Below are positions 2,268 through 20,000 of a stretch of 20,000 nt of DNA, piece by piece. Origin of the DNA: an uncultured virus (IMG/VR IMGVR_UViG_3300025018_000154). Taxonomy: Duplodnaviria; Heunggongvirae; Uroviricota; Caudoviricetes. The position numbers and the translations under genes are program-made. The stretch is taken from IMG/VR virus record IMGVR_UViG_3300025018_000154, one strand, 5' to 3'. Numbering within the stretch: the first letter of the stretch is position 1; the number at the start of each line of letters is the position of its first letter. The notes under the pieces were generated by a model, which was given only the letters and a program-made list of their open reading frames with translations, was not told where the DNA came from and did not search any database.

Positions 2268-2290
2268 GAGTCTTCTCCTTGGTTTACGAT

Positions 2291-2692
2291 TCAGTCGTGG
2301 GTGCCGCGCACGTGTTCGATGGCCTTTCCCGGCGCGGCCGTGCGCCAGTCGGGCCAGTCGCGCAGCTCGTTCTTGCCCTGCTTTGCGACGATCATCTCGA
2401 CGGCCTTGGCGGCCACCTGATCGAAAGGCAGGTTCGGGTTGGCCGCCGAGATCGCGCGGGTCAGCCCGTCGATACCGAGGATCGCCACGTCGGTCCACTC
2501 TTCGGCGGCCTCCATGTGGGTGTGGAAGTCGGGCTCTTCGCCCGGGTTGCCGTCGTTCTCGGCGTAGACCTTGGCGACCTCGCGCAGCTCCTTGCCTACG
2601 TGGTCGATCACGCCCTCGGTGCGCGGACCCGGGCCGAACGTGGCGCGGGAGAACGCCGCTTGGCGGGTCAGGTGGGTGACAAAATCAGTCAT
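2291..2692 (-). CDS. DUF550-family dATP/dGTP pyrophosphohydrolase (MazG-like)
   Basis: FSRATFGPGPRTEGVIDHVGKELREV...EEWTDVAIL...KNELRDWPDWR...AIEHVR signature. Confidence 0.85.
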   Translation of the reverse strand: MTDFVTHLTRQAAFSRATFGPGPRTEGVIDHVGKELREVAKVYAENDGNPGEEPDFHTHMEAAEEWTDVAILGIDGLTRAISAANPNLPFDQVAAKAVEMIVAKQGKNELRDWPDWRTAAPGKAIEHVRGTHD

Positions 2693-3599: not shown

Positions 3600-3600
3600 G

Positions 3601-3949
3601 TCAGCTCTCCTTCACGGGCTCGATTGGGCGCGTCACGGTCACTCCGATGCTGGGCGTCAACACCATCGGCACCGTCCTGACCGGCGGGGCCTTGGGCACC
3701 GTCCTTGCCGTCAACGCCATCGGCACCGTCAGCACCATCCTGACCGGCGGGGCCTTGGGGGCCTTGCGGACCCGGTGCGCCGTCCTGACCAGCAGGGCCT
3801 TACGGGCCGGTCGGTCCAGCGGGGCCTTCGGGGCCAGTGTCGCCGCAGAAGAACGGCGGGTTCGGCGTGTTGCACGAGTTTCCGCCGGTAGCAAAGGCCG
3901 GGCTCGCGAGAAGCGCAAGGGCGGCGAAGAGGGAGGTCATTTTCAGCAT
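3601..3949 (-). pseudogene. secreted collagen-like (Gly-X-Y) protein gene with a nonsense codon and a truncated or frameshifted 3' end
   Basis: ATG 3949 with SD AAAGGA: MLKMTSLFAALALLASPAFATGGNSCNTPNPPFFCGDTGPEGPAGPTGP*GPAGQDGAPGPQGPQGPAGQDGADG...; TAA at 3800-3802 sits in a GP(Q)G triplet run. Confidence 0.8.
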
Positions 3950-4059
3950 GGTTCATTCCTTTTGCTGGGTTTCAGGTGCCCGACCGAGGCGGGTGGGATT
4001 TTCCCCGGCCGGGCGTCGAGGGGATCAAGGCTTTGCAGTCCAATCACCCCCCGATTCGT

Positions 4060-5202: not shown

Positions 5203-5262
5203 GAGCTTGAGTCCTTTTCAAAGGGGTTCTGCTGGACCGGAGCTTCGTGCCCCGGTGACAGA

Positions 5263-5291
5263 CAGATAGACTACCCCCGGTGGACAATCAA
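5263..5291 (-). promoter_or_regulatory. putative phage promoter TTGATT-N17-TATCTG (copy 1)
   Basis: TTGATTGTCCAC...GTC-TATCTG; same element at 10153-10181 and 11976-12004; A-tracts upstream. Confidence 0.7.
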
Positions 5292-5331
5292 GTGGTCATG
5301 ACCAACTTTTTTCCAAACCATCTGGTTTTTC

Positions 5332-5367
5332 GGCGCGGCGAACCGGGAATCCGCCGCGCTATTTTTT
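5332..5367 (+). terminator. GC hairpin followed by a T-run on the + strand (possible antisense-oriented terminator)
   Basis: GCGCGGCG-N11-CGCCGCGC then TATTTTTT. Confidence 0.4.
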
Positions 5368-5403
5368 GCGGGGTTTTTCTATTTTACCCCTATTTTCATT
5401 GGC

Positions 5404-8400
5404 TTACCCGCAGGAAGACCAACCGCAATCCACGCAGGAAGAGCACCCACTTTCCCGCTTGAAATTGTAGCCGCCGCAGTTCGGACAGGGCTTCCCCTTG
5501 ACCTCGAAAGCCATCTCCGGGATGGGCATCTCGGCCAGAGAGGGGTCAACCCGGAGCGCCTTGACCGGCTTGGTGATTCCCCCAACGTCCATGTGTTCGA
5601 GCAGCTTGGTCCCGATGGCCGCGAGCGTGGAGGGCTGGTAGCCCCGCTTGCCCCAGAAGCCGCCGGTCGAGGACGAGTGGATGCGCCTGAAGTCCTCCGC
5701 GATGAAGCGGGCCTCGCCCCGGCGCATCACGGCCGAGACCGTCCGGGCGATCCCGACCATCCATTCGTCGTGCGCCGGGTCGCTCGACCGCAGGAATATC
5801 TCGAAGGGCCGGGTGACGCCGTTCTCTGTGATGTCCGAGACGGTCAGGTAGACCGCCTTGTTCGAGCCGACCTTGATCTTGTAGGTCGTCCCGGACAGGG
5901 CCTCGGGTCGCTGGATCAGGTCGCCCTCGTCCCGGTCGAGTTCGAGGTTGGCCTTGGCAAAGCTCGCGGCCTGCGCCTCGATCTCTTCCGGGGACATCTC
6001 GTATTCCCGGGCTGCCTCGATCAGCTCGTCCAGATCGGGCTTCTCTTCCTTCGGGGGATCGACGGACAAGACGGAGCCCGTGACATCGTTCGGCCGGTAG
6101 GTCGTGCAGCCCTTGCAGCCCGTGTCATACGCCTGATCGTAGACTGCCTTGAAGTCCTCGAACGAGATGTCCTCCGGGCAGTTGATCGTCTTCGAGATCG
6201 ACGAGTCCACGTGGCGCTGGGCGGCTGCCTGCATGATGACGTGCTCGTGCGGCTTCAGCTCTTGGGCCGTCACGAAGTAGTCGGGCAGGGGCTCGTCGCC
6301 ACGCAGCTCGCGCCAGAGCTGGACGGCATAGTCCACGACCTCTTCCTCGGTGCGCGTGCCGTCCTTCTGCAAGACCTTGCGCTTGTAGGCGAGGGCGAAG
6401 ACCGGCTCGATCCCGGAGGACACGTTGCCAGCGTAGAGCGAGATCGTCCCGGTCGGCGCGATGCTGGTCAACAGGGCGTTGCGGATGCCGTGCTCGCGGA
6501 TCGCGGCCTTCACGTCGTCAGGCATGGTCGAGGCGTGGGTGCCGTCGGCAAGGAACTTGTCGGCATCGAAGAGCGGGAACGCCCCCTTCTCCTTTGCCAG
6601 CTCGACCGAGGCCCGGTAGGCTTCCACGTCGATCAGGCGCATCCACTTGTCCAGCCGCTCGGCAGCCTCTTCCGTGCCATAGCGCAGGCGGACCATCATG
6701 AGTGCGTCGGCCACGCCGGTCACGCCCAGCCCGATCCGGCGCTTGTTCTCGGCCTCTTCCTTCTGCTGGGGCAGCGGGAAGTTCGAGACATCGACCACGT
6801 TGTCCATCATGCGGACGGCCGTGTGGACGAGCTTCTTCAGGCGGTGGGAATCGAGCCCGGCGTTGTCCGCGAACGGCTTGTCGATAAGCCGGGCCAGATT
6901 GATCGAGCCGAGCAGGCACGCGCCGTAGGGAGGCAACGGCTGTTCGCCGCAAGGATTCGTAGCGGCGATGGTCTCGACGTAGTTGAGGTTGTTCGCCTTG
7001 TTGATCCGGTCGATGAAGATCACGCCGGGCTCGGCATAGCCGTAGGTGGATCGGAGAATCGTGTCCCAGAGTTCTCGGGCGTTGACGACCCGGTGGACGT
7101 AGCGCGGCAGGCCGTCTCCGTCCCGGCCGGTGCTCCCCAGATGATCCAGAATCTCGGTATTCAGGCCAGAGTGCGGGCCGGTAGCAGGCGGCTCGACATG
7201 GACAAGAGGCCAGTCTGCATCCGACCGAACCGCCTTCATGAAGTCGTCTGTCACCAGCACGCTCATGTTGAACATGCGCAGGCGCGCGGCGTCCTGCTTG
7301 GCGGTGATGAAGTCTTCGATGTCCGGGTGGTCGCAGCGCATGGTCGCCATCATGGCTCCCCGTCGTGATCCTGCGGACATGACCGTTCGGCACATGGCGT
7401 CCCAGCAGTCCATGAAGGTCAGCGGGCCGGAGGCGTCCGCGCCGAGCTTCTTGACCAAGGCACCCTTCGGCCGGATCGGGCTGAAGTCGTAGCCGATGCC
7501 CCCGCCCTGCTGCATGGTCAGAGCCGCTTCCTTCAGCATCGAGAAGATGCCGTCCATCGAGTCGGGGATCGTCCCCATCACGAAGCATTGCCCCGTGTGG
7601 ATGCCGAGATCGAGTTGCACCGAATCCGTCGAAAGAACACGAGGACAATAGACCGGCTCCGGGTCCGCATACGACCCAATCTCGATAACTTCCCAGCCGG
7701 GTTCCGACGCCACGAAGTTCGCAAGATGCTTGGCAAGAAGGAAGTCATCTTCGGTCATCGTCCAGCGGTGGAAGCCGACATTGAACAGCGGTTTGTTGCG
7801 AGGCCCAAGATTGGTCTTCGTAGGTTGCGCCGTAGCGAAGGAAACCTCCATCCCGGCAATCGCACCGAACTTGCGAAGCCATGCGAGTTCTTCTTCCCCG
7901 CAGGAAAGAATGGCCTTCATATCACGGGCACAAACGCTGCCATCCGTGGCGAGCCAGCCACGAAGAAAGCCCGTGAGGTATTCGACATTGTGGGTGATCG
8001 AAGACGGGAGAGCCTTCAGATCAAGACGAATACCCGTAAGACGAACGAGGGGGTCCCCGTCGAAACTGGGCGGTTCCGTAATAGCGACACCCGGATGCGA
8101 ATCGAAGAACTCGATAAGATCAGCCTTGTCCCCGCAGAGGCGGATACGGAACGAACGAAGGCCCTCGGTGTTGGTGGATTCCAAAGAGCCATCACCGTAG
8201 ATCAGGCCGTGGGCAACTCCGAGACGGTAGGACGGGCAGTCTTCGACTTCCTTACGGCGGACGAACTTCAACTTGTCCCCAGCGGCGAGTTGTTCTGTGG
8301 TTTTCTCAGAACCGTCGGCCATGACCCAGCGATGCCCAGCAGTCGCCCGGATCGTCTTGCGCTTCCGACGATTATATCCGCCTGCGAGAATGACATTCGC

Positions 8401-8799
8401 CACGGGCTGTTCTCCGAACGAGTTGATCGGAGCAGCAATCCATTCGCCGTTCCCGTCGAGAACATGGACGTTCATGCCCGCGATCTCGCCAATCTGCACG
8501 AGGCCGTGTTCTTTCGTCAGAATCGTCGTGTCGGCAGCGAGGCAGTTGAACAAGGTCACACTGCGCCCGGTGCCCGCGCCTGCGGTGATCCGCCCGGCGG
8601 GGAGATACTGGAAGTCTTCGAGCGCCTTGTAGAACTCGTCCTCGCGCTCGATGTCGAGCCCTTCCGGCTCGGCCAGCGCCCCGGCGATCCTGCGCCACGT
8701 GTCCTCGACGGTCTGGTCAACCGGCGTGCCGTGGTTGTCCTTCAGGCGGTATTTCATATCCCAGATTTGCTCGGAGATAGGAGCAGAGAAGCGTGTCAT
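5404..8799 (-). CDS. nrdJ: class II (AdoCbl-dependent) ribonucleotide reductase with intein, C-terminal TSCPD-like and Zn-ribbon domains
   Basis: [81 protein letters not shown]...[10 protein letters not shown]. Confidence 0.96.
7588..8544 (-). mobile_element. 319-aa intein with LAGLIDADG homing endonuclease in nrdJ, ending in Gln
   Basis: Starts [10 protein letters not shown] (Cys86); ATAGHRW block [10 protein letters not shown] and [12 protein letters not shown] motifs; PVYCP block F; ends GIHTGQ/C; codon usage differs from the exteins. Confidence 0.92.
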
Positions 8800-8832
8800 G
8801 ATTTTCCCTCATATTGATTCGACCCGGCCAAC

Positions 8833-9042
8833 CTACGCCATATGTAGCGGTCGGGACAGCTTCAGTTCATCCAGCGCCTCGTCAACGTCGAGAGGCCAGA
8901 CCGACCAATCCAACCGCTCCGCAGAGATCAGGTGAATAGGCATCCCGCGCCGGATGGGGGCGACGGGTTTCTCGGCGCACGCCTTGCAGAGCCCGTCGTC
9001 ATCACGGCGGGCTCTGCGGGCGCAAGATCGGCACTTCTTCAA
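8833..9042 (-). CDS. small Zn-finger protein (CRSC...CKAC), 69 aa, probable TTG start
   Basis: TTG overlaps the HD gene stop (TTGA); two CxxC pairs. Confidence 0.6.
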   Translation of the reverse strand: MKKCRSCARRARRDDDGLCKACAEKPVAPIRRGMPIHLISAERLDWSVWPLDVDEALDELKLSRPLHMA

Positions 9043-9563
9043 GGCTGAATCCGTGCGAGCTGAAGCAGCTCCTTCAGGCGGTCTTCCGAGATCGGCGGCA
9101 TGGGCTTGTTCCACGGGGCCGGGGCGTTGCCGAAGACCCAGAGCCATTCGACCGTCTCGGCCGCCTTGTCATACTGGTGGACCAGCTCTCGGGTAGATCG
9201 GGCCGGGTAAGCGCGCCCCCGGGCCGCGCAGATCGCCCGGTCGAGGCCGTCTTCGATCCGGTGGAGCACGTTGGTTTCGTAGGAGATCAGCGACTTGATC
9301 GGACCCGGAATGTCCCCGGTGATCGCCTCATGGTCGTCGTGGTGCAGGCACCAGTCGATGACCTCTTCCCGTTCGTTCATCTCCTGCGCCAGTAGGGCGA
9401 CGAGATGGCGGTGCTGGTGGACGGTCAGCGCCCTCGGGTCGTTCGACCAGCGGTGCATGATCCGCAGGCGATCCTCGATAGCCCGTAGGTCGATCTGACC
9501 GGGGCAGGGGTTCATGATGTCGCGAATCAAAGACTTCCCGACTTGGAGGCAGTAGACCTTCAT
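9039..9563 (-). CDS. HD-domain 5'-deoxynucleotidase / dNTP hydrolase (YfbR/YfdR-like)
   Basis: HRW...TVHQH...CLHHDDHEAITGDIPGPIK...YDK; ATGA overlap at 9560-9563 (alternative start 9569). Confidence 0.8.
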   Translation of the reverse strand: MKVYCLQVGKSLIRDIMNPCPGQIDLRAIEDRLRIMHRWSNDPRALTVHQHRHLVALLAQEMNEREEVIDWCLHHDDHEAITGDIPGPIKSLISYETNVLHRIEDGLDRAICAARGRAYPARSTRELVHQYDKAAETVEWLWVFGNAPAPWNKPMPPISEDRLKELLQLARIQP

Positions 9564-9907
9564 TTCCATTCCTTCAGAGCTGCGAAAGCCGCGCCGCAGC
9601 CCTCTTCGTCAACTTGCGTTTGAATGTCCTTCATCGCCTTATCCACGGCCGCCTTCAAGGCGTGGTGGAGCCAGAAGCCGATCCTGCGGCCCGTGGAGTG
9701 GCCCCCTGCACCCAGATAGGTCATGTCGGTGTAGTAGTAGCGGCCGACCTCCGAGGTCGCGTTGAGTGCGGCCTTCGCGGCGTCCATGTTGGCGTAGTCG
9801 ATGGGGCCGGAGAGAGACTCGGGGGTCTTGTGGTAGTCCCAGACCTCGCCCTTGTATTCCAGCAGCTTGCCGTCCATCGGGCCACCGATGATAAGTCCTC
9901 TGTTCAT
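9560..9907 (-). CDS. hypothetical protein with IGGPMDG motif, 115 aa
   Basis: ATGA coupling on both sides; GGPxDG motif common in small phage proteins. Confidence 0.75.
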   Translation of the reverse strand: MNRGLIIGGPMDGKLLEYKGEVWDYHKTPESLSGPIDYANMDAAKAALNATSEVGRYYYTDMTYLGAGGHSTGRRIGFWLHHALKAAVDKAMKDIQTQVDEEGCGAAFAALKEWK

Positions 9908-10128
9908 TGTGCGTGCTCCGGGCAGGTGAATGTGGTGCGGCGGACAGTCCAGCCCCGGCGCTTGGCGATGTTGTGGAGAACTTCGGGCGGCTTGCGCTTG
10001 CCGCAGATGACGACCTCGACCGTGTTCTGGCAGCTCTCGCAGGAGCACGGGAGGACGTGAAGGCGCTGGGTTCCATCGCCAACGCGACGGACGGTTTCGA
10101 CGATGCCAGGGTATGATGCTTTCCGCAT
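9904..10128 (-). CDS. small Zn-binding protein, 74 aa
   Basis: CESC ... RGWTV...TCPEH; SD GAGGAG. Confidence 0.75.
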   Translation of the reverse strand: MRKASYPGIVETVRRVGDGTQRLHVLPCSCESCQNTVEVVICGKRKPPEVLHNIAKRRGWTVRRTTFTCPEHAQ

Positions 10129-10152
10129 GATGGACTCCTCTGTCTACCGCAG

Positions 10153-10181
10153 AACATAGAGGCCCTGCGGTAGACAATCAA
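10153..10181 (-). promoter_or_regulatory. putative phage promoter TTGATT-N17-TATGTT (copy 2), overlapped by a 12-bp inverted repeat
   Basis: TGTCTACCGCAG (10141-10152) / CTGCGGTAGACA (10165-10176). Confidence 0.7.
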
Positions 10182-10183
10182 GC

Positions 10184-10633
10184 CTAGATTGGCACTTTCT
10201 GCGAGATCAGGTCTTCCCAGCTCGGCCGCAGGACATTGCCCGGGTCGAACTGGATTGCCGTCAGCCCCACACCGAAGGGGTCTTGCGACCCGGGCGCGGT
10301 CTTCTCGAAGAGCTGGCAAGCGATCACCCCGGGCTGCTCCCGAAGCAGCGTCTCGATGGGGGTCTGCGTGACCTCGCAGTAGCGCACCAGCTTGTCCAGC
10401 TCGTCATAGGTGGACGTAGAGAACAGCCGGGGCTTCCGGGCCGAGCGGATCGAGAAGAGGCCCCAGCGGCCACGAGAGGCGTTATCTACGGCGTGCGGGA
10501 GGCTGTTGACGATCTCGACCGGCAGCTCGTCCACCGGCACGGCAAGACCATATTGCGGGTTCCTGCCGTCCGGGCCGGGCGACGGCTCGGTCAGGGACAG
10601 ATAGTTCATGCGGGATACGTGGAACTCGATCAT
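10184..10633 (-). CDS. hypothetical protein, weakly similar to DUF2815 / gp2.5-like ssDNA-binding proteins
   Basis: RMNYLSLTEP..DGRNPQY, FSIRSARKP, GVGLTAIQF echo DUF2815 motifs; no acidic tail. Confidence 0.5.
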   Translation of the reverse strand: MIEFHVSRMNYLSLTEPSPGPDGRNPQYGLAVPVDELPVEIVNSLPHAVDNASRGRWGLFSIRSARKPRLFSTSTYDELDKLVRYCEVTQTPIETLLREQPGVIACQLFEKTAPGSQDPFGVGLTAIQFDPGNVLRPSWEDLISQKVPI

Positions 10634-11193
10634 TCGGGCATGTCCCCTATCAGGTCGCCAGCTTCCTCCGGGATGCGGGCGAGTTCGGACTGGTAGTGGT
10701 CATGCTCTTCCTGCCACTGCTCGAACGCGGCCCAGCCATCCGGGTTGGACTCGTCGTCGCCCTCGGGCTCTTCCATCTCGTCGGGCTCTTCAAGGTCGGT
10801 CAGCTCTTGGGCCAGCGTATCCAGCTCGTCCGCGATCCGCTCGGCCTCGTTGGCCCGGTTCTCGATCATCTGGCCCGTGTCGCCCTGCTGAAGCCCCTCC
10901 GGCATGTTGTCGAAGTTGTTCTGGGCCTCTTCCCCGATCTCGCGGATCGCCTCGGCCGCAGCGGTGATCGCCTCGGCGTCCTTGTCGCCGCGCTCCCATT
11001 CCTCCTGCATCCCATACCACGCCTGCTTGAACGGCGAGCTGGTAAGCTGGCTCTGGGTGAAGGGGGTCTTGGACCGCATCACCTTCGACGAGCGAGGCCC
11101 CGTCTTCATCTTCGTGTAGTAATACATCTCGCCCTTGACGATCCCTTGGTTGGGATAGTCCTTGCGGGCTTTCACGTGCTTCACTCTGGGCAT
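10630..11193 (-). CDS. phage hypothetical protein with a basic N-terminal and a very acidic helical C-terminal half
   Basis: 187 aa; KARKDYP..GIVKGEMYYY; FDNMPEGLQQGDTGQMIENR. Confidence 0.8.
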   Translation of the reverse strand: MPRVKHVKARKDYPNQGIVKGEMYYYTKMKTGPRSSKVMRSKTPFTQSQLTSSPFKQAWYGMQEEWERGDKDAEAITAAAEAIREIGEEAQNNFDNMPEGLQQGDTGQMIENRANEAERIADELDTLAQELTDLEEPDEMEEPEGDDESNPDGWAAFEQWQEEHDHYQSELARIPEEAGDLIGDMPE

Positions 11194-11195
11194 AG

Positions 11196-11405
11196 TCAGG
11201 AGTCCTTCTTCAGTCGGTTGAGAATTGCTTCACCACGGAAGCGGGCGTAGTCGGGGCTCTTGTCCTCGAACTTCACGCGCAGCTCGCCGTAGTCGATGGT
11301 TTCGTCAGCACCCAGCTCGTGAGCGATCTCCCGGGCGCGCTCGATCTGGTCGGCCGGGACTTCCTCTTCGCTGAAGGTGATCCACACGTCGGTCTGGAAT
11401 TGCAT
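11196..11405 (-). CDS. hypothetical protein, 69 aa (MQFQTDVWI...)
   Basis: SD GGGGAG before ATG 11405. Confidence 0.7.
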   Translation of the reverse strand: MQFQTDVWITFSEEEVPADQIERAREIAHELGADETIDYGELRVKFEDKSPDYARFRGEAILNRLKKDS

Positions 11406-11459
11406 GTCGCTCCCCTTTTGGTGCGGCCCGGAAGGCAAAACCCTCCGGGCGGATTCGTT

Positions 11460-11939
11460 TCAGAGGAACCGGATCGAGTATTCGTCGGCTTGGCAGAGGT
11501 CGAGGGCGGCCTTGGCCGCGTCCTTCTTCGTGCCGATGGTCACGGTCTCGACGATGCCATAGCAGGTGGGCAGCTCGACGTTCGCCATTGCGGTCAGGCT
11601 CTCCCCACCACGGCCGTTGACGATCAGGAAGGCGGCCCGGTTCGGCGCGAGCGCCCCGGCGATGGACCAGAGCTTGCCGTCCTTCTCCGCATCGCGCTCG
11701 GACAGCTCGCGGTCCTTGACCATGATCTCGGTCATGATGCTGGCGGCAGAGAGGGTGGGGGTTTCGTTGCGGGCGCAGACGGCGCGGACTGCCTCTTGCA
11801 CACCCTTGCCCTCGGCTTGGGCTTCGAGGAAGTGGACGCACCACATGAACGGGCGGCCCGTCGTCTGGGCCAGCTCTTCGGCGCGGGTCATCGAGATCAT
11901 CGGGCCGGGGGTCACGGTCTCTACGGTCTTGTCGGTCAT
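11460..11939 (-). CDS. hypothetical protein, 159 aa (MTDKTVETV...)
   Basis: SD GGGAG before ATG 11939; first gene after promoter copy 3. Confidence 0.75.
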   Translation of the reverse strand: MTDKTVETVTPGPMISMTRAEELAQTTGRPFMWCVHFLEAQAEGKGVQEAVRAVCARNETPTLSAASIMTEIMVKDRELSERDAEKDGKLWSIAGALAPNRAAFLIVNGRGGESLTAMANVELPTCYGIVETVTIGTKKDAAKAALDLCQADEYSIRFL

Positions 11940-11975
11940 CTTCGGTCTCCCGGGGCGGGAATCGCCCTCGCCAGA

Positions 11976-12004
11976 GAGATAGACCACCGCGAGTAGACAA
12001 TCAA
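11976..12004 (-). promoter_or_regulatory. putative phage promoter TTGATT-N17-TATCTC (copy 3)
   Basis: TTGATTGTCTAC...GTC-TATCTC. Confidence 0.7.
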
Positions 12005-12009
12005 TAGGG

Positions 12010-12080
12010 GTCGCTCAACTTTCGTCGCTCAACTTTTGGCGATTCCTAGAATCAGATTCGTTTGCGCGGATTCGTTTGCG
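12010..12080. repeat. short direct repeats GTCGCTCAACTT x2 and GATTCGTTTGCG x2
   Basis: Copies at 12010/12024 and 12055/12069, upstream of promoter copy 3. Confidence 0.75.
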
Positions 12081-12219
12081 TGCGAGGGGGTCTGGAATGA
12101 GAAGGGCCGGTCAAGGCTCCCGCGCCCTAGACCGACCCCCGCGTTATGGGACTAACGCTGCCCTCTCCTGACAGGCCCGTGACCTCGGGTTCGCCCTATC
12201 GCCTCGGATAGTAGCGCGA

Positions 12220-12690
12220 TCAGGCTGGATCGGCAAGTCTGGTGCGATCTGCTCGGCAAGCGTCGATGTCGAAAGCTGCGTTGAGCTGGCGAACCCCTGC
12301 CCACTGCTGGCGACAGTAAAGGGCCAAGGTCAAGTCGAGCCGTTGGGCCAAGCTGGCGTTCTCTGGGGACGGGACTTCGGCAATGCGCTGGGCGGCGAAG
12401 AGCATAAGGGTCTCGCACTCTGCGACGTGGACCGGAAGGTGGGAAGTGAAGTTGTTGGCGCAGTAATCGAGCGCAGCGTTGATCTCGGCCAAGGTCGTTC
12501 GTTCCGAGAGGTTGGCCGGGAAGCTCCGAATCACCCCGGAGTCGATGACCCGGGCTTGGTCGGCCGTGAGCGGGTTGTCCGTGATGGTCTCCCAGAGGTC
12601 TTTCGGCGTCGGGAACATGACCACCGTGGCAGTCATGATTGCAGCAAAAGCGTGAGAGATCATTCCGTTCATAGTTAAACCATTTGCCAT
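12220..12690 (-). CDS. hypothetical exported or membrane-anchored protein, 156 aa, 4 Cys
   Basis: SD GGAG; hydrophobic N-terminal segment; own promoter. Confidence 0.7.
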   Translation of the reverse strand: MANGLTMNGMISHAFAAIMTATVVMFPTPKDLWETITDNPLTADQARVIDSGVIRSFPANLSERTTLAEINAALDYCANNFTSHLPVHVAECETLMLFAAQRIAEVPSPENASLAQRLDLTLALYCRQQWAGVRQLNAAFDIDACRADRTRLADPA

Positions 12691-12783
12691 TTGTGTCTCC
12701 GGGGCTTTCCCATCTCACCGCTCGCAATGGCCCCGGGGGCTATGCGCTCGGTCGGTCGCCGCGCTGGCGGACCTTGGCGCTAA

Positions 12784-12812
12784 GACATACGCGAGCTTGG
12801 GTTGCCTGTCAA
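12784..12812 (-). promoter_or_regulatory. sigma70-like promoter TTGACA-N17-TATGTC
   Basis: Consensus -35 with 17-bp spacing upstream of 12220..12690. Confidence 0.65.
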
Positions 12813-12821
12813 AGCCGCCGG

Positions 12822-12894
12822 AAATTTTGAACGGGCCAGACTCCCGAAGTAGTGGCGAAAAAATTTTGAACGGGCCAGACTCCCGAAGTAGTGG
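12822..12894. repeat. perfect 34-bp direct repeat x2 (AAATTTTGAACGGGCCAGACTCCCGAAGTAGTGG)
   Basis: 12822-12855 and 12861-12894, 5-bp spacer. Confidence 0.95.
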
Positions 12895-13016
12895 AGCGGC
12901 GGGTCCGTGCGCTTGCAGGTAGAACTCTTGATCCGGGCGCACCGTTCCCTCTCGCGGGTGGATCGGCCGCGCGATTCGCAAGATTCCGCCGTTCACGGGA
13001 CGTTCCGGGAACATCG

Positions 13017-13092
13017 CAACCCATTGGAATCGTTGACGGAATCCGGCCCCCCGGGGGCGATCGCACGCGGAACGGCCCGCAACCCGTTGAAA
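13017..13092. promoter_or_regulatory. two IHF-like sites (CAACCCATTGGAA, CAACCCGTTGAAA)
   Basis: Resemble YAANNNNTTGATW; at 13017 and 13080. Confidence 0.4.
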
Positions 13093-13134
13093 CTAAACGG
13101 TTTTTCGCGTTCCGGGGGCGAAAACCGCCCGCCG

Positions 13135-13420
13135 GGCCGCGATCCGGGCCAGCTCGGCCGCCGGGGGCGAGGGCGAGGGCCGCCAGCTCGGCCGCGATCC
13201 GGGGCGAGGGCGTGGGCCAGCTCGGCCGGGCGTCATGAGGGGGCGAGGGCCGCCAGCTCGGCCGGGCGTCATGAGGGCCGCCAGCTCGGCCGCCGTGGGG
13301 CCGCCTTCAGCTCGGCCGGGGGCGAGGGCGTGGGGCCGCCTTCAGCTCGGCCGGGGGCGAGGGCGTGGGGCCGGGCGGACGTGCGAACGCCCCCGGCGGG
13401 CGGCCGAGGGCGTGGGGCGG
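13135..13420. repeat. left G-rich modular repeat block (AGCTCGGCC x7, GGGCGAGGG, GTCATGAGGG)
   Basis: Non-coding; same word set as 19375-19950. Confidence 0.85.
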
Positions 13421-13422
13421 AT

Positions 13423-13448
13423 ATGAAAACGCCCCCGGGCCGGGGGCG
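13423..13448 (-). terminator. intrinsic terminator ending the island operon
   Basis: CGCCCCCG-3 nt-CGGGGGCG followed by TTTTCAT on the minus strand, just after the stop at 13463. Confidence 0.65.
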
Positions 13449-13462
13449 CGGGGGCGTGGGTT

Positions 13463-13681
13463 TCAACGGCGGCCGGTTTTTCGGTCTAACTCTTCAGACG
13501 GCCCTGGCCGGGCCAGATAGGTGACGCCCGCGACAAGGGCGAAGGCGAGGGCGTGCGGGGGTCCTTTCCAGAATAGCGCGACGGCGGCCGCGAGGGCGAA
13601 GGCGAGGCAAAGGAAACGGGCCGCGCCCTCGGCCGCCATATGCCCCCGCAACCGGGCGCGCGTTCGGTTGCGTTCCGTCAT
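13463..13681 (-). CDS. small two-helix membrane protein, 72 aa
   Basis: ATGA overlap; FLCLAFALAAAVALFW and ALAFALVAGVTYLA. Confidence 0.7.
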   Translation of the reverse strand: MTERNRTRARLRGHMAAEGAARFLCLAFALAAAVALFWKGPPHALAFALVAGVTYLARPGPSEELDRKTGRR

Positions 13682-14814
13682 GCCGGGAACCGTTCAACGC
13701 CCGCGCCCTCGCAAAATGCCGCCCGGGCGTCCGCGTCCGGGTAGAAAATGAAGGGCGACTCGTCGCCTTCAGCAAGGCGGGCACGCTCGGCCATAAGCTC
13801 GGCCCGGGCCGCCAGCTTGCCCCGGATCGCCTCGCAAAAAATAGCGTGAGTCCGGGGCATTTCCTCGGCCGTTGCCGCGTGCAATCTGTTTTGACGCAAT
13901 GCCGCCAAAACCTCGGCCCGGATCGCCGCGAGGCGTTCGCCCGCGTCCGCCCACGCGGAACCGGCCCCCCATGCGGTTTTATATTCCCGTTCCGCCTCGG
14001 CCACGGTTTCGGCCATGCTATCGGCCCGGCGGGCGCAATCCTCGGCCGCCTCTTCAGCGTCCGACTCCTCGCGGCCCTCGGCCACAACGGCGGCCCGCAT
14101 GTCGAATTGCGCGCCCCCTTGGCAATCGTCGCCTAACCGCCAGCCCGGAACAAAAACCGCCCGGCCGTCGCGCCCGCGCAACTGGCCCACGACTCCCACG
14201 ATAAGCCCGGAACCGTCGCGGAACGACTCGCCGTGCGGGTTGTCATAATATCCCGTATGGCCGAGGCGGGCGAGGGCGTGGGCGTCGCGGATATTGCGAA
14301 CCGTGCCGCCGTCATAAAGGGCGAAGAATTGCCCGCCCTTGTCGCCCGCCGCCATATGCCGGGGGCCGCCCTCGCCTTGCCAGAATCCCGCGCCATAATC
14401 CGGCCCGGGGGCCGCGCATAGATTGCGAAGGCGGGCAACCTCGGCCCGGGCGCGGGCGTGCCGCCGTTCGGCCATGTCATAGGCCCCGGCGGCCGCCGTT
14501 ACCGCTTGCGCGGCCGCCTCATATGCCGGGCCGCCCTCGCGGGCCAGCGATTGCGCCGCGAGCTTTGCCGCGTTCGATTCCTCGCGGGCGTGATCGCGGG
14601 CGACGGCCGAGTCTTCATACTCGGCCCGGGCGTCGCGGAACGCGGCAAGGTTCGCCCGCGCCTTGTGCAAGGCATAGGCGGCCGCGCCTTTCCCGTCATG
14701 GGGCGAGTCGTATCGCTGGCCCATGAAGGCGGGCAAGGGCGCGGCCGTCTGAAGGGCGGACGCGGGGGCCGGGAACGTCCGGGCGCGGGCAAAGGCGGTT
14801 GCGAGGTTTTCCAT
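13678..14814 (-). CDS. Ala-rich hypothetical protein, 378 aa (MENLATAF...)
   Basis: SD GAAGGA before ATG 14814; globular core HTGYYDNPHGESFRDG...VGQL...FVPGW between helical segments. Confidence 0.8.
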   Translation of the reverse strand: MENLATAFARARTFPAPASALQTAAPLPAFMGQRYDSPHDGKGAAAYALHKARANLAAFRDARAEYEDSAVARDHAREESNAAKLAAQSLAREGGPAYEAAAQAVTAAAGAYDMAERRHARARAEVARLRNLCAAPGPDYGAGFWQGEGGPRHMAAGDKGGQFFALYDGGTVRNIRDAHALARLGHTGYYDNPHGESFRDGSGLIVGVVGQLRGRDGRAVFVPGWRLGDDCQGGAQFDMRAAVVAEGREESDAEEAAEDCARRADSMAETVAEAEREYKTAWGAGSAWADAGERLAAIRAEVLAALRQNRLHAATAEEMPRTHAIFCEAIRGKLAARAELMAERARLAEGDESPFIFYPDADARAAFCEGAGVERFPA

Positions 14815-14910
14815 AGTGAGTCCTTCAGGTTGTGCCCCGGGGGGCGGGTTGTCGCCTCTCATGAGGGCGGGAACGGGGGCGGGTTGTCCGCCCCCTAACC
14901 GGCCGTCACG
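14815..14910 (-). repeat. conserved structured intergenic element, copy A
   Basis: TGACGGCCGGTTAGG-hairpin-TTCCCGCCCTCATGAGAGGCGACAACCCGCCCC..GGGGCACAACCTGAAGGACTCAC-ATG. Confidence 0.85.
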
Positions 14911-15028
14911 CCTTGCGGGCGTAGTATATCCAACGGCCCCCGGGCGATTGCCGCCGGGCGTTGTCAGAATTGCGGAGTCCGCCCCGTTGCCGCCAGCTCG
15001 CGGCCGTGATGCGAGTCCAGCCGGTCAC
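14906..15028 (-). CDS. small protein, 40 aa (MTGWTRITAASWRQRGGLRNSDNARRQSPGGRWIYYARKA), not in ORF track
   Basis: GTG overlaps the upstream TGA (GTGA); fills the gap to element A exactly. Confidence 0.6.
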   Translation of the reverse strand: MTGWTRITAASWRQRGGLRNSDNARRQSPGGRWIYYARKA

Positions 15029-15174
15029 GCCTTGCACGCTCGCGAGCTGGCGGCATATGAGGCGGACGAGTCGGCCGCGTTATATTCCCGGGCGAGGCGG
15101 AACGCCTCGGCCATTGTCTCGGCCGAGTCCACGGTTTCAACGTCGCGGCCGTCATGGCGATTCACGTATGGCAT
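15025..15174 (-). CDS. small protein, 49 aa (MPYVNRHDGRDVETVDSAETMAEAFRLAREYNAADSSASYAASSRACKA), not in ORF track
   Basis: SD GAAAGGACTCACA-ATG, the same type of leader as neighbouring genes. Confidence 0.75.
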   Translation of the reverse strand: MPYVNRHDGRDVETVDSAETMAEAFRLAREYNAADSSASYAASSRACKA

Positions 15175-15228
15175 TGTGAGTCCTTTCCTGAAGGGGGGCC
15201 GCCCGGATCGCCCGGGCGGCCGGTTGCG

Positions 15229-17148
15229 TTAGGCGTGGGCGCGGGTTTCGGTTGTATCGGCCGGGGCCAGCTCGGCCACGCCTAACCGTTCCGCAAGGGC
15301 GGAAACCTCGGCCCACGCGATCCGGTGGCAACCGGCCCGGAATCCGCCGTCGGATTCTACCCGGTCAATTCGGAATTGCCCGACAGGAAGAGTCCGGCCG
15401 TTCGCTTGCCACGCCTCGCCCTTGTCGCGGCACGCCTTCAGGAACCGGAACGCCCGCAAGGCGTGGGCGAGGGGCACGCGCGCCCCTTGCGAGGTTTCCA
15501 GCTCGCCCCCCGTGATCGCCCCGGCCGCGTCGCGTTCGACTCCGTTCGCCCGGATATAGGCGGAACCGTCGGGCAAGGCGCGGGGCGTATGGCGGGCCAG
15601 CTCGGCCGGAACGCGGCCGCCGTCGCGCCATATCCGCAACGCCTCGGCCCGGGCGCGTTCGGTTTCCTCGGCCGCGATCCGGGCAAGCTCGGCCCGTTCG
15701 GTTTTCTCGGCCGCCTTCAGCTTGTCCGCCAGCTCGCGGAACCGTTCGGGAGTCCATCCGGCAACGGCCCACGCCCCCGGGATAGGGTAAAGCGAACCGG
15801 GGCGGAAACCGGCCGAGGCATAACGCCCGGCCGCGCGCGCGCCCTCGGCCATAAGGGCGGCCCGTTCGCCCGGGTTGCCCTCGCCCGCCGGGATTGTCAC
15901 GGCCGCCCGGATTGCCGCCAGCTCGCGACGGCGGGCGGCCCGGGTTTCCGCCTTGCGGCAATCGTCGCCCACGGAGTCCAGCTCGGCCGCCAGCGTATGA
16001 AGGCGGGCCGCCAGCTCGGCCGGGTTGTGCCCCGCGATCCGGGCCGCCGGGGCCGCCCATGCGCCGCGCATGTCATCCGCCGGGATAAGGGCGGCCGCCA
16101 GCTCGCGCGCCTTATCCGCGCCCCGGTCAATATCATATGCGCCCCCGGGCCGGTTGCCGCCCGTTACCTTGACTCGAACCTCGCGCCCCTCGCGGAACGC
16201 CTCGGCCACGCGGACGCCCTCGCGAACGCCCGCAACCCGGCCTCGCCAGATTGCGAGTCGGTTCGCCCTCATGTCCGCCGCGTCAAAGGCGGGCAACGTG
16301 GCCCGGATCGCGGCCCGGACGGCGGACGCCTTGCGAACGCGGGCCACGTGCCCGGCCGCCTTGCCCGCCTTCATTGCGCGCAATATCTCGCGGCCCACGC
16401 TTTCCCATTGGCCCGACTCATATGCGACGGCCCCGCCCTTGCCCGCAACCCGGCGGGCGTCCGCCGTCATACGTTCCACAACCTCGGCCGGATTCGTCCG
16501 GGCGAACCTTGCGAGGGCCGCCAGCTCGGCCCGGGTTTTCGCCTTTGCCTTTTCAACGGCGGCACGCTCGGCCGCCTTGCCCGCCTTTGCCACAATGGCG
16601 GCCGCCCGCCGTTCCGGGTTGTCCGCTTGTGCCGCCTTCAAAACCTCGGCCACGCTGGCGGCAATGTCCGCCCGGCCCTCGGCCGAGGCGTTGCGCGGAT
16701 CGCCGGGCAGGTTGTCCGGTTTCGCAAAATGCGCGGCAAGGCGCGGCACGGCATAGCGGGCAACCTCGCGGGCGTTCGGTTCGCCATATTCCGACGGGAA
16801 ACAACCGGGATTCAGACGGGGCGAGGCATTGCGCAAGGCGTCCGCCAGAATCTCGGCCACGGGATTCAGGTTCGGAATCCAAACGCGGCCCCGGTGGCGG
16901 GTTGCGCTTGCCGCGTTTGAAACGTGCCGCGAGGTTGAAACGGAATAGGAGTCCGCATTGATAAGGGCGACGCCCACGCCCGCCGGATTGCCCGGGGCCG
17001 GGGCCAGATACGCCGCGACATAATGGCGGCCATATGAATAAAGGGCGCGGCCCTCAAAAAATAGATTCCCGTTATGCGAACGCCCCGACTCTTGCGAGAA
17101 TTGCGCGAAAACATGGGCTGTCATAGCGTTGTCAAATACCGTTGCCAT
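15229..17148 (-). CDS. large Ala/Arg-rich hypothetical protein, 639 aa
   Basis: Globular N-terminus (FEGRALYSYGRHY...INADSYSVSTSRH) and C-terminus (ETSQGARVP...VGQFRIDRV...AGCHRI); SD GAAGGA. Confidence 0.85.
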   Translation of the reverse strand: MATVFDNAMTAHVFAQFSQESGRSHNGNLFFEGRALYSYGRHYVAAYLAPAPGNPAGVGVALINADSYSVSTSRHVSNAASATRHRGRVWIPNLNPVAEILADALRNASPRLNPGCFPSEYGEPNAREVARYAVPRLAAHFAKPDNLPGDPRNASAEGRADIAASVAEVLKAAQADNPERRAAAIVAKAGKAAERAAVEKAKAKTRAELAALARFARTNPAEVVERMTADARRVAGKGGAVAYESGQWESVGREILRAMKAGKAAGHVARVRKASAVRAAIRATLPAFDAADMRANRLAIWRGRVAGVREGVRVAEAFREGREVRVKVTGGNRPGGAYDIDRGADKARELAAALIPADDMRGAWAAPAARIAGHNPAELAARLHTLAAELDSVGDDCRKAETRAARRRELAAIRAAVTIPAGEGNPGERAALMAEGARAAGRYASAGFRPGSLYPIPGAWAVAGWTPERFRELADKLKAAEKTERAELARIAAEETERARAEALRIWRDGGRVPAELARHTPRALPDGSAYIRANGVERDAAGAITGGELETSQGARVPLAHALRAFRFLKACRDKGEAWQANGRTLPVGQFRIDRVESDGGFRAGCHRIAWAEVSALAERLGVAELAPADTTETRAHA

Positions 17149-17248
17149 ATCGTGAGTCCTTCAGGTTGTGCCCCTATCCGGGGCGGGTTGTCGCCTCTCA
17201 TGAGGGCGGGAAGGGCGGCCCGTGGGGGCCGCCTAACCGGCCGTCACG
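17149..17248 (-). repeat. conserved structured intergenic element, copy B
   Basis: Same linkers as copy A; hairpin stem/loop sequences differ. Confidence 0.85.
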
Positions 17249-18092
17249 TGACGGGATGGAACCGGGCCAGAATTGCGGCCACGTCGCCCGCTAGGGCCGT
17301 TTCCAGTATCTCGGCCGCGTCCGCCGCGTGATTGCGGGCGGTATCGGAGTCGCCATAATGGGGCGCGCGGATCGCCGCGAGGGCCGCCCGCATTGCCTCG
17401 CGGGCCGCGTTGCGTTCGCTTTCCATGTCCGCCAGCTCGCGAACGGCCGCCGTGCGGGCGTCGGTTGCCTTGTCGGTTTCCTCGGCCCCGAGTCTCTTCA
17501 GCTCGGCCCCGTTGTTCCCGCCCGGGGCGGCCGCGTCGCTGGTGGCATGATAAAACGCCCCGGGCCGGGCATGGAAAACCGCGCGCCATGCGTGCCCGCC
17601 CACGCCCTCGGCCGCGTCGCGGGCGTTAGTCGCGGCATGGTCCGCCAGCACGCCCGCAAGGGCCGCCATTGCGGTTTTCAGGTGCGACGCCTCGCCCTTG
17701 CTAGGCGCGGGGCCGAGGGCGGCCGCGAGGGCGCGGGCGTTGTCCGGTTTCGCGAGGTTTTCCCGGATCGCCTCGGCCGGATTGAGGCGGCCGAGTCCTA
17801 TGTCCGCGAGGGCGCGGCCGAGGTTGTCGGGCGTCGCCTCGCGGATAAGGCGGGCCAGCTCGGCCGCCGGGGGCATTGCCTCGCGTTCGGCACGCTGGCG
17901 GGCGTTGAGTCCGTCAACCTCGGCCGCGAGGCGGGAAAGCTCGGCCAGTGCGATCCGGGGGCCGTCGCCCGTTCCATCCTGAAGGGCCGCGACAAGGGCG
18001 GGCATAATCCCGGCCCACGTGGGCGCGATATTGAGAGTCGCGGCCGTGGGCGAGCTATCGGCCGGGCCGGTCAATTTGATTCGGGTTTCCAT
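17244..18092 (-). CDS. Ala-rich helical hypothetical protein, 282 aa (METRIKL...)
   Basis: SD GAAAGG before ATG 18092; IAPTWAGIMPALVAALQDGT...AELSRLA segment. Confidence 0.8.
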   Translation of the reverse strand: METRIKLTGPADSSPTAATLNIAPTWAGIMPALVAALQDGTGDGPRIALAELSRLAAEVDGLNARQRAEREAMPPAAELARLIREATPDNLGRALADIGLGRLNPAEAIRENLAKPDNARALAAALGPAPSKGEASHLKTAMAALAGVLADHAATNARDAAEGVGGHAWRAVFHARPGAFYHATSDAAAPGGNNGAELKRLGAEETDKATDARTAAVRELADMESERNAAREAMRAALAAIRAPHYGDSDTARNHAADAAEILETALAGDVAAILARFHPVT

Positions 18093-18093
18093 G

Positions 18094-18207
18094 TTATAAC
18101 CTTTCCAGAATTGCCGCGAACGCGGGCAGGTAAGAGATTGAGGCATAAAGGGCGGCCCCGATTGCGGCGAAGGCGAGTCCGTCGCGGATAAGCCCGGGGC
18201 GGTTCAA
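18094..18207 (-). CDS. small membrane peptide, 37 aa (MNRPGLIRDGLAFAAIGAALYASISYLPAFAAILERL), not in ORF track
   Basis: TTG overlaps the upstream TGA; ends 1 nt before the next ATG; one hydrophobic helix. Confidence 0.55.
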   Translation of the reverse strand: MNRPGLIRDGLAFAAIGAALYASISYLPAFAAILERL

Positions 18208-19229
18208 CGGTTCGCCCACGTGCAAAGGGCCATGAGGGCGGCAACGCCCCCGGCATATGCCGCGACGGGATAGGCGAGGGCGAAGGCGCGGGCGGTTTCG
18301 ACATAGGAGTCCAGCGTGCCCGGGGCCGCGTGAAAATGCCCGGCGGCAATCTCGGCCGAGGCGGGCGAGGCGAGGGCGAGGGCCGCGAAGCCGGCGGCAA
18401 CGCCCGCCCGGGCCAGAGTCCAGCGTCCGCCGGGCTGGCGGGTTGCGACAACCTCGCGGGCGTCCGGGGCCATATCGGCCGCCAGCTCGGCCACGGTTTC
18501 GCCGTCCGCCGTGGCAATCGCAAGGGCGAGGCGTTGCCCCTCGGCCGTCATGGGGGCGCGATACTCGGCCGGGCGAACCTGAAGGGCGAAGGCGGCCGCC
18601 AGCTCGGCCGGGATTGCGCCCGCCTTCAGCTCGGCCACGTGGGCCACGATACGCGCCCGGGCCGCCAGCTCGGCCGCCTCGCGTCCGGTTGCGGTTGCGA
18701 TCCGGCGGGCCAGCGAACGCCCGGCGGATTCAAGGGCGGGCACGCTGGCCCGCATGGCGGCCGCCATGACGGCGGAAACCTCGGCCGGGGCCACGGGGGC
18801 CAGCTCGGCCGCAAGGGCGGCACGGCGGGCGGCCCGGATCGCGCGGCACGTTGCGGACGCCTTGAACGTGGCAAAGGTTGCCGCCTCGGCCGTTTCACGG
18901 TTCGCAATCTCGCGGGCGAGGGCGCCGCGTTCCTCGGCCGCCAGCTCGGCCGCCGTCATATCCGACAACCCGGCCCCGGCCCGGACATAGGCGCGAACCT
19001 CGCGGGCCACGGCGGCCCCCGTGGGCGATCCGGCAAAGGTTGCCACGGTTGCGCCATTGATTGCCGCCAGCGTGAAAAGCCCCCGGCCGAGGTAAGGGCG
19101 GGAAAGCGTCGCGGCCGGTTCGCCCTCGGCCGTGCATAGAGTCGCGTGGGTTTCATTGTCCGCCATGACGCGCGCCCGGGGGGCGAGGGGGGCGAGGTTT
19201 TCAAGGCGGGCGGTTGCGAGGTTTTCCAT
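18204..19229 (-). CDS. Ala-rich hypothetical protein, 341 aa (MENLATAR...), C-terminal hydrophobic segments
   Basis: First gene after the 19314-19341 promoter; SD GAAGGA. Confidence 0.8.
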   Translation of the reverse strand: MENLATARLENLAPLAPRARVMADNETHATLCTAEGEPAATLSRPYLGRGLFTLAAINGATVATFAGSPTGAAVAREVRAYVRAGAGLSDMTAAELAAEERGALAREIANRETAEAATFATFKASATCRAIRAARRAALAAELAPVAPAEVSAVMAAAMRASVPALESAGRSLARRIATATGREAAELAARARIVAHVAELKAGAIPAELAAAFALQVRPAEYRAPMTAEGQRLALAIATADGETVAELAADMAPDAREVVATRQPGGRWTLARAGVAAGFAALALASPASAEIAAGHFHAAPGTLDSYVETARAFALAYPVAAYAGGVAALMALCTWANR

Positions 19230-19267
19230 ATTGCGAGTCCTTCAGGTTGTGCCCCGGGGGGCGGGTT
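19230..19267 (-). repeat. 3' part of the intergenic element, copy C
   Basis: AACCCGCCCCCCGGGGCACAACCTGAAGGACTC identical to copy A. Confidence 0.85.
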
Positions 19268-19313
19268 TCGGGGCCAGCGGGCGAATCGCCACGCCGCAAC
19301 CCCTTGCCCCCGG

Positions 19314-19341
19314 ATTATACATGCGCGGCCGCCATTGGCAA
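19314..19341 (-). promoter_or_regulatory. sigma70-like early promoter TTGCCA-N16-TATAAT
   Basis: Perfect -10 in very GC-rich DNA, at the head of the island operon. Confidence 0.7.
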
Positions 19342-19396
19342 CCCACGGGCCACAATGCGCGAACGCGCCCGGCGGGCCGTCATGAGGGGGGCACGT

Positions 19397-19470
19397 GGGC
19401 CATGCGATCCGGGGGCCATGCGATCCGGGGGCCATGCGATCCGGGGGCCATGCGATCCGGGGGCCATGCG
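19397..19470. repeat. 16-bp tandem repeat GGGCCATGCGATCCGG x4.6
   Basis: CATGCG at 19401, 19417, 19433, 19449, 19465. Confidence 0.95.
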
Positions 19471-19694
19471 CCAGCGGGAGTCGCATGGCGGGCACGCTCG
19501 GCCGAGGGGGGCACGGGATAGGGGCGGAACCGTGGGCGGGATTCCATCTGGCGGAATTGAGGGGGGCGAGGGCGTGGGCCGGGGGCCGGGTTGCGGGGCG
19601 TGGGCCAGCTCGGCCGAGGGGGCGAGGGCGGGGGCGTCATGAGGCGGGGCCAGCTCGGCCGCGTCGCCCGGCATGGGGGCACAAGGCGAGGGGG

Positions 19695-19746
19695 CGGAAC
19701 CGTGGGCCGGAACCGTGGGGCGGAACCGTGGGCCGGAACCGTGGGC
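19695..19746. repeat. 13-bp tandem repeat CGGAACCGTGGG(C/G) x4 (fifth copy at 19525)
   Basis: Starts at 19695, 19708, 19721, 19734. Confidence 0.95.
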
Positions 19747-19853
19747 GTGCCCGGGCTGGCGGGCGTGGGGCCAGCTCGGCCGAGGGCGGGGCCGTCATGA
19801 GGGGGCCGGGGCGCGTGCCCGGGGGGCCGTCTATCGGGGGGCCGTGGGGGCCA

Positions 19854-19949
19854 GCGTTCCCGCCTTTACCGCCGTTCCCGTGGGGCGAGGGGGCGGGCAA
19901 TCATGGGGGCCGTGGGGCGGGCGTTCCCGACGTTACCGCCGTTCCCGTG
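19854..19949. repeat. 29-bp imperfect direct repeat GCGTTCCCGnnnTTACCGCCGTTCCCGTG x2
   Basis: 19854-19882 and 19921-19949, each preceded by GGGGGCCGTGGGG. Confidence 0.85.
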
Positions 19950-20000
19950 ACCGCTCGGGTCCTCCCCCGCCTGCTGGGTCGTCCGGGGGGTGCGCGGAGC

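Follow-up and report, generated by a model that had tools for sequence, protein, structure and literature searches.

The stretch of DNA analysed here, 20,000 nt from an uncultured virus of the Caudoviricetes (IMG/VR record IMGVR_UViG_3300025018_000154) and referred to as the window, carries towards its right end a short word, GCCAGCTCGGCC, that is repeated on one strand only. This motif is most likely a by-product of the vocabulary of the terminal block in which it lies (13091..20000), being the block's spelling of Ala-Glu-Leu. In the explanation favoured, to which a probability of about 0.7 is assigned, the block is a T5-like, restriction-poor genome end that enters the cell first. An earlier, sequence-only reading had taken the motif for a selected signal, but the motif is predicted by the word rules of the block, is not conserved in relatives, and changes among close strains at the background rate. 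A function as a signal is unlikely, even if all readings of this kind are taken together.

The motif and the spelling of Ala-Glu-Leu

The window was searched on both strands for exact word matches. GCCAGCTCGGCC is present 18 times on the plus strand, at all coordinates given in the sequence-only reading, and not at all on the minus strand. For the core, AGCTCGGCC, 28 and 0 copies were counted in the whole window, and only two of them, at 1816 and 10219, precede the other 26, which are found within 13151-19773; both the strict polarity and the near absence from the left part had thus been described correctly. As had been noticed as well, ten copies are non-coding, lying outside the six called genes (seven at 13151-13352 and three at 19607-19781). 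The 16 coding copies (13796..18951, minus strand) are all in-frame Ala-Glu-Leu, each written GCC GAG CTG/CTT, and the tetrapeptide named earlier, Ala-Glu-Leu-Ala, accounts for 11 of them, the rest being AELK (twice), AELD, AELS, and AELM. The scarcity of CAG was confirmed, with 87 CAG/CTG in the block and 251 expected.

The non-coding copies belong to two repeat regions on the plus strand. Seven are part of an inner array (13148..13352) built from 26-36-nt units of block words and located just beyond the terminator described below; its unit number is variable, with one extra unit in contig L124. Three are contained in end-proximal repeats (19380..19800), which consist of a 16-nt unit present four times and of 13-nt units. 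A Pro-rich open reading frame (ORF) of 119 codons at 19315-19674 was judged to be spurious, though two of the three end-proximal copies read AEL in it. Since the block is carried by the independent contigs L124 and L125 (97-98.5% identical) and by aligned contigs of four out of four runs, an assembly artefact is ruled out.

The number of motif copies depends strongly on the null model applied. Plain synonymous recoding with the codon usage of the block yielded on average 1.5 coding copies and at most five in 300 runs, compared to 16 observed. A Markov word model trained on the motif-masked block predicted 14.3 of the 16 coding copies at order 5 and 10.7 at order 4; with the left part of the window as training sequence, it predicted 2.7. 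A null model with five- and six-mers gave 13.1 of 16 copies; it was set aside as circular, and the masked Markov model was used instead. The motif count thus greatly exceeds a simple null, but it does not exceed one that takes the word rules of the block into account. This evidence is strong, but not fully independent, because the model was trained on the same block, in which near-copies of the motif are present.

The rules themselves are simple. All 75 GCCGAG of the block, both strands counted, follow a G, and neither GAGCTC nor CAGCTG occurs anywhere in the window. Ala-Glu is spelled GCCGAG in 50 of 58 cases here, GCCGAA in the terminal blocks of phages S-ESS1 (21 of 23) and phiCbK (35 of 38), and GCGGAA in R16L (21 of 23). 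Tandem AELAA peptides are encoded in the S-ESS1 block without any AGCT, and GGCCGAGCT does not occur in the blocks of S-ESS1, R16L, G001, and phiCbK. Distant protein homologues are rich in AEL, too (for example P0008, five compared to 0.5 expected), and the dipeptide excess tracks the frequency of the corresponding DNA words out of frame (rho 0.50, 85 pairs). What the sequence-only reading had named as its own refutation, Ala-Glu-Leu-Ala usage together with local duplication, largely holds, except that the spelling is fixed by the loss of words and not by codon usage alone.

Among close strains, motif sites changed in 7 of 270 cases with 6.9 expected, and motif copies have been both lost (3 of 12 in L125, 98.5% identical) and gained. 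In the non-coding flanks, other frequent 8-mers are equally one-stranded (10/0 and 8/0). A scan of viral contigs for pairs of motifs returned at least 119 stretches, and among the 86 loci measured, more than one motif copy per kb was detected only in L124, L125, and an unrelated contig, L008/L009. This 8.4-kb viral contig harbors ten copies of the core on a single strand without having a low-vocabulary block.

The word-purged terminal block

The block comprises the cos-proximal 6.9 kb of the window (13091..20000). It has 72% GC, is enriched in GANTC and CGGCCG, and lacks 84 of the 512 five-mers as well as 52 of the 64 six-base palindromes; it contains 428 five-mers, and a stretch of the same length from the left part contains 481. 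The five-mers absent from the block, a set defined on the block itself, occur about 100 times per kb to its left, the last one at 13090. For single words the loss is drastic, with observed and expected numbers of 0 and 35 for ACAC, 3 and 90 for CTGC, 6 and 90 for CACC, 2 and 40.5 for AGGCC, and 0 and 12.9 for CGCCGA. Most of the 52 palindromes are missing window-wide, whereas the loss of the asymmetric words GCAGC, GGGAC, AGGCC, and CGCCGA is confined to the block. Restriction-site specificity was judged on palindromes and on a list of 12 asymmetric restriction five-mers, nine of which are strongly reduced in the block. Across the whole window (1-20000), GTAC and 50 of the 64 six-base palindromes do not occur, and CCWGG is almost completely missing; CGGCCG is the chief palindrome tolerated window-wide and is five-fold enriched in the block.

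Strain differences showed that the vocabulary is under continuing constraint and holds out of sample. In L124, 9 of 191 differences create a five-mer absent from the block, compared to 29% by simulation, and when only synonymous differences are considered, 4 of 72 do so with 20.6 expected. In L125, the corresponding values are 2 of 33 and 26%. The block diverges much faster than neighbouring DNA (191 of 5317 compared to 15 of 6578 sites in L124). The earlier suggestion that selection acts on the DNA is thus correct for the block, where strain differences avoid the missing words, but not for the motif itself.

Similar blocks are present in related phages. For this comparison, block limits were taken from annotation for named phages and from word profiles for others, and 17 blocks entered the comparison of dinucleotides and methylase sites, leaving out L129, L131-L134, L136, and the pCB2051-A record. 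In S-ESS1, R16L, L127, L130, and L135, the five-mers absent here occur 34-75 times per kb in the terminal block and about 90-130 times elsewhere, and the edges are sharp; G001, RcMcDreamy, and phiCbK show a smaller drop. Dinucleotides mixing strong and weak bases are low in 17 of 17 blocks (observed/expected ratios of 0.75-0.92 compared to 0.96-1.05).

In the window, GANTC reaches 7.1 per kb in the block and 3.4 outside, and 34 of 44 AGT/ACT triplets of the block are located inside GANTC, compared to 14 of 188 outside the block. GANTC is enriched (p<=3e-4) in 8 of the 17 blocks, those of this phage, S-ESS1, R16L, L127, L130, L135, G001, and RcMcDreamy, of which only R16L and RcMcDreamy have a recorded alphaproteobacterial host. 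S-ESS1 (L003/L143) resembles phages of alphaproteobacteria in gene content and in its GANTC-rich end despite a record naming Synechococcus. In the four enterobacterial phages (Chi, Enc34, ZCSE8, and Smarc5), which are related and therefore not independent, GANTC is down and GATC, the Dam site, is up, with 9.2 compared to 4.5 in Chi (p=2e-5) and 7.1 compared to 3.6 in Enc34 (p=6e-5). The blocks of Nazgul and Bacata gave no clear methylase-site pattern. In Xylella phage Sano (L150:1-4400), CCWGG is found 7.3 times per kb in the cos-proximal block and 2.6 times elsewhere, while most relatives are devoid of it. Several relatives encode methylases of their own, so that host and phage enzymes are indistinguishable as the relevant ones. 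GANTC methylation is described as widely conserved in Alphaproteobacteria and GANTC as under-represented in their genomes (10.1101/2021.05.08.442635; PMC3925955).

From these data, the following course of events is proposed. The block would enter the cell first and be expressed before the remaining genome is protected. As a consequence, it would have shed the recognition words of many host restriction-type systems, asymmetric ones included, while the genome as a whole would avoid palindromes only; restriction-type defence would be the selective agent. Such an effect of entry order has a precedent in T5-like phages, which are cut only if sites lie in the DNA transferred first (PMC10644984). Awkward adenine contexts left over may have been placed in sites of the conserved orphan host methylase CcrM, GANTC, where restriction enzymes of these hosts could hardly make use of them, and methylated GANTC might shield overlapping sites; this step is proposed with more reserve. 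In the vocabulary of the block, Ala-Glu is nearly always GCCGAG after G and Glu-Leu is GAG CTG/CTT, and because of these two rules Ala-Glu-Leu, which is frequent in the helical, Ala-rich early proteins of the block, collapses to one spelling. The motif is polar because all genes of the block are on one strand, and short duplications carry block words, the motif included, into the non-coding flanks.

A number of observations weigh against this explanation. Forbidding the absent five-mers alone yields 2.6 of the 16 coding copies, and the model that succeeds has the same block as training and test sequence, with near-copies of the motif in it. Ala-Glu-Leu is the most over-used tripeptide (16 compared to 2.4 expected from composition and 9.5 from dipeptides, p=0.03), its excess is larger than in relatives (6 compared to 1.3 in S-ESS1, 1 compared to 1.7 in R16L), and the ten copies in non-coding arrays stay unexplained. 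Among the 12 restriction five-mers, GACGC and GGATC are not reduced and CTCAG is uninformative. Of the five-mers that could be assessed, about one third (109 of 304) have less than 0.2 of their outside rate, and for this reason the purge is not demonstrably specific for restriction sites. No comparable block is present in L129, L131-L134, and the pCB2051-A record, and only a weak one in L136. GANTC is not enriched in phiCbK (p=0.09) and Leszy, both with alphaproteobacterial hosts, the host on record for S-ESS1 is Synechococcus, and for GATC the enrichment is marginal in ZCSE8 (p=0.05) and falls short of significance in Smarc5 (p=0.1). Virion DNA is reported to be incompletely methylated by Dam in some cases (10.1101/2020.10.05.325894), and no anti-restriction or protective gene was recognised in the block by Pfam, PADLOC, or PDB fold comparison.

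Alternative explanations and known systems

Among the alternatives, the one that survives best, although it is improbable, regards the motif or a longer unit as a binding site of a lineage-specific phage or host protein, acting in protection, translocation, or an injection pause and spread by selection through genes and flanks. The residual excess of Ala-Glu-Leu (16 compared to 9.5) speaks for this view, seven copies crowd the inner edge of the block, and repeat arrays are located at that edge in relatives, too. The array units, however, differ from relative to relative, the motif sites are no better conserved than background, copies were lost in the 98.5% identical strain, and a nearby element is better conserved. 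This element is a direct-repeat pair just outside the block (12829..12894; 27 nt each, starting at 12829 and 12868, 39-nt period), which S-ESS1 and G001 also have at this boundary; the pair is thus kept in three out of three aligned phages. It is the better candidate for a cis-acting signal and might serve as operator, origin, or injection stop.

Chi, Enc34, R16L, Sano, and Bacata have repeats of other families at the corresponding position. In Salmonella phage Chi (L146:5302-5573), five boundary repeats include three copies of GCTGGTGG, all on one strand; one copy is found at this boundary in ZCSE8 and none in Smarc5 and Enc34. Tandem arrays with the KOPS-type word GGGCAGGG are located at the inner edge of the block in G001 (L137:5236-5397), in L130 (14024-14148), and at the ends of S-ESS1 (L003). 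In the window, a KOPS near-word, GGGCGAGGG, is distributed 14 to 1 by strand, but a KOPS reading was rejected for this phage, since only two consensus KOPS are present in the block.

Improbable too, and ranked behind the binding site, is the view that the block is an early cassette of separate origin, prone to repeats, and that its odd word usage results from mutation, from duplication, or from selection on physical properties of the DNA (clustering of A/T apart from G/C) and not from restriction; the motif would still be a by-product. The low mixed dinucleotides in all 17 blocks, the very broad purge, and the fast divergence of the block from its neighbour in L124 fit this view. It is difficult to reconcile with sharp word-specific rules such as those for AGGCC and CGCCGA, with different words being banned in each lineage, and with the switch of the enriched site between GANTC and GATC according to host group; the window-wide avoidance of six-base palindromes also points to restriction pressure.

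That the motif is a Chi-like signal attenuating AddAB and guarding the entering end, as suggested in the sequence-only reading, is very unlikely. Strict polarity at a genome end would be appropriate for such a signal, the three GCTGGTGG at the inner boundary of phage Chi are on one strand, and 19 copies of GCTGGCGG, a candidate Chi variant (10.1101/2020.08.13.249359), are found on the minus strand. Chi sites should be skewed between replichores. Skew was determined in 400 kb of a Ruegeria chromid, 400 kb of a Rhodobacter chromid, and 280 kb of an alphaproteobacterial chromosome, G028, the true host not being among them; replichores were defined by the KOPS switch, as GC skew was too noisy, and G058 was dropped for want of a clear switch. 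KOPS is consequently not an independent control. AGCTCGGCC occurred 8/8, 16/13, and 15/12 times on leading and lagging strands, no sub-word was skewed, and the two chromids together had 47 ten-mer matches, about evenly divided between replichores. GCTGGCGG is unskewed in hosts, too, and by the Chi polarity rule points away from the end. In the same replicons, GCGGTGGT, the chi of Caulobacter (PMC5443536), was skewed 19/5, 38/28, and 24/12; it is absent from the block. Observed/expected ratios in host genomes (order 4) were 0.9-2.2 for the 9-mer and 1.1-1.6 for CAGCTCGG, the level expected of a common codon string, and in 60 published alphaproteobacterial genomes, with G029 left out, the 12-mer was about as frequent as its reversed control. 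The motif is not kept in relatives, and the boundary sites of phage Chi drop to the numbers given above. The least probable function is that of marking programmed nicks in one strand, known from T5 and phiKMV-like phages. Only the one-strand distribution speaks for it; the gene copies are fully frame-tied, restricted to one block, and not conserved in relatives.

Returning to the restriction-poor entry end, site-poor DNA entering first is already known from T5, and this block is a real and striking variant. It shares with the first-step-transfer DNA of T5 and BF23 (Tequintavirus) the form of a terminal early block of 7-10 kb with a repeat-rich inner boundary, in which restriction is expected to matter mainly (PMC10644984; 10.1101/866236), and like the T5 region it is depleted of restriction-type sites relative to the rest. 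It differs in having a cos end, as do its close relatives, instead of long terminal repeats, in a purge far broader than a list of sites that reshapes codon pairs, and in the enrichment of host methylase sites; a two-step injection as in T5 is conjectural for this phage. With the right ends of Casjensviridae (Chi, Enc34, S-ESS1, and RcMcDreamy of cluster RcD) it shares a 12-nt cos, terminal genes, and word depletion, and with S-ESS1 gene order; repeats and diversity of RcD right ends have been noted (PMC8601537). Its vocabulary is the lowest or near-lowest of those measured. Transcription of the block is directed inward from the end here, in S-ESS1, and in G001, but toward the end in Chi, Enc34, Sano, and R16L. 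The Chi sites recognised by RecBCD or AddAB (GCTGGTGG in E. coli, GCGGTGGT in Caulobacter) are also short, polar, repeated words, but the motif shows no skew between the replichores of the hosts sampled, is not kept in relatives, and is frame-tied in genes. Plasmid leading regions also enter first and have an altered, GC-rich composition, but palindromes are reported not to be consistently depleted in them (PMC13478746), whereas asymmetric words are strongly depleted here. In the literature covered, mostly open-access texts, no description was found of the motif, of a purged end in Casjensviridae, or of a methylase-site enrichment there that switches with the host group.

A more general proposal, tentative and rather doubtful as a whole, is that Chi-like cos phages possess an epigenetically camouflaged entry segment. 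Their first 4-7 kb would be purged, with adenine contexts placed in housekeeping-methylase sites (GANTC for CcrM, GATC for Dam) and overlapping targets thereby pre-blocked, and the repeat pair at the inner edge would pause injection or gate later expression until early proteins act, a staged entry as in T5. Whether cos phages use staged injection and methyl shielding is open to experiment in cultured relatives of known host, such as RcMcDreamy, which grows on Rhodobacter capsulatus. What looked like a signal becomes a marker of how far defence pressure can rewrite the entry end, an effect that reaches codon pairs and probably the use of dipeptides, and the missing words may record target sites of restriction-type systems in the host population. 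The GANTC/GATC switch may help to assign uncultured Chi-like phages to host clades, although it failed in two alphaproteobacterial phages outside the group.

Genome end, host, and gene map

The last 12 bases of the window (19989..20000, plus strand) match the cos overhang annotated in Hafnia phage Enc34 at all but one base, and the end of the window is therefore the right genome end, in agreement with the earlier placement of the region at a terminus. In phage Chi, the Enc34 12-mer is also found, between the terminal block and the primase gene. The right end presumably enters first, following the packaging rule of lambda, and the block would then be the first-entering DNA. Genes for the thymidylate synthase ThyX, ribonucleotide reductase, and a DUF932 protein are arranged as in S-ESS1 (Casjensviridae); with structural and terminase genes outside the window, assignment to this family is based on the 12-nt cos end and the Chi-like gene order. 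Since the top matches of the reductase in a plasmid collection are from Rhodobacterales (about 60% identity) and ThyX is nearest to those of Rhodobacter phages, the host probably belongs to the Rhodobacterales.

The six genes of the block are all on the minus strand and are predicted to run inward from a sigma-70-like promoter (19314..19341, minus strand, 11 of 12 positions, consensus match only) to a hairpin resembling an intrinsic terminator (13429..13449, minus strand, likewise a consensus match only), which would end the transcription unit. The first gene (18204..19229) specifies an Ala-rich protein of 341 residues without family match and contains six motif copies, the second (17244..18092) a protein of 282 residues with an N-terminal match to phrog_22670 and three copies, and the third (15229..17148) a protein of 639 residues assigned to phrog_7247, again with six copies. 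Homologues of the latter are encoded at the ends of S-ESS1 and R16L and in the terminal repeat of phiCbK; its structure, predicted with confidence, has long helices connecting two beta-rich end domains and no PDB match at E<=0.001. A called 63-residue ORF follows (14964..15155), the stretch of which is swapped for unrelated sequence in L124 and three aligned runs. The gene at 13678..14814 (378 residues, phrog_8188, one motif copy) has a homologue in S-ESS1, and the last one is a hydrophobic ORF of 72 residues (13463..13681). No match to Pfam, PADLOC, or PDB folds was obtained for the block proteins, only uncharacterised phage proteins being matched, and a search of 12-20 kb of the window against Rfam gave no hit.

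An identical 21-nt element on the minus strand, spanning the ribosome-binding site and a GANTC, is located directly 5' of three genes (14818, 17154, and 19235; 14818..19255). Two of these genes begin with the same heptapeptide, MENLATA, which suggests duplication or a common regulator.

Outside the block, the class II ribonucleotide reductase (5404-8799) contains an AT-richer insertion of about 320 residues (approximately residues 87-405), which appears intein-like by inspection and is absent from the L124 alignment (window 7588-8537). A dATP/dGTP pyrophosphohydrolase is encoded at 2291-2692 and an HD-family 5'-deoxynucleotidase, with a weak match to a dATP triphosphohydrolase PHROG, at 9039-9569. 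Both hydrolases indicate editing of the nucleotide pool, which might go along with base modification.

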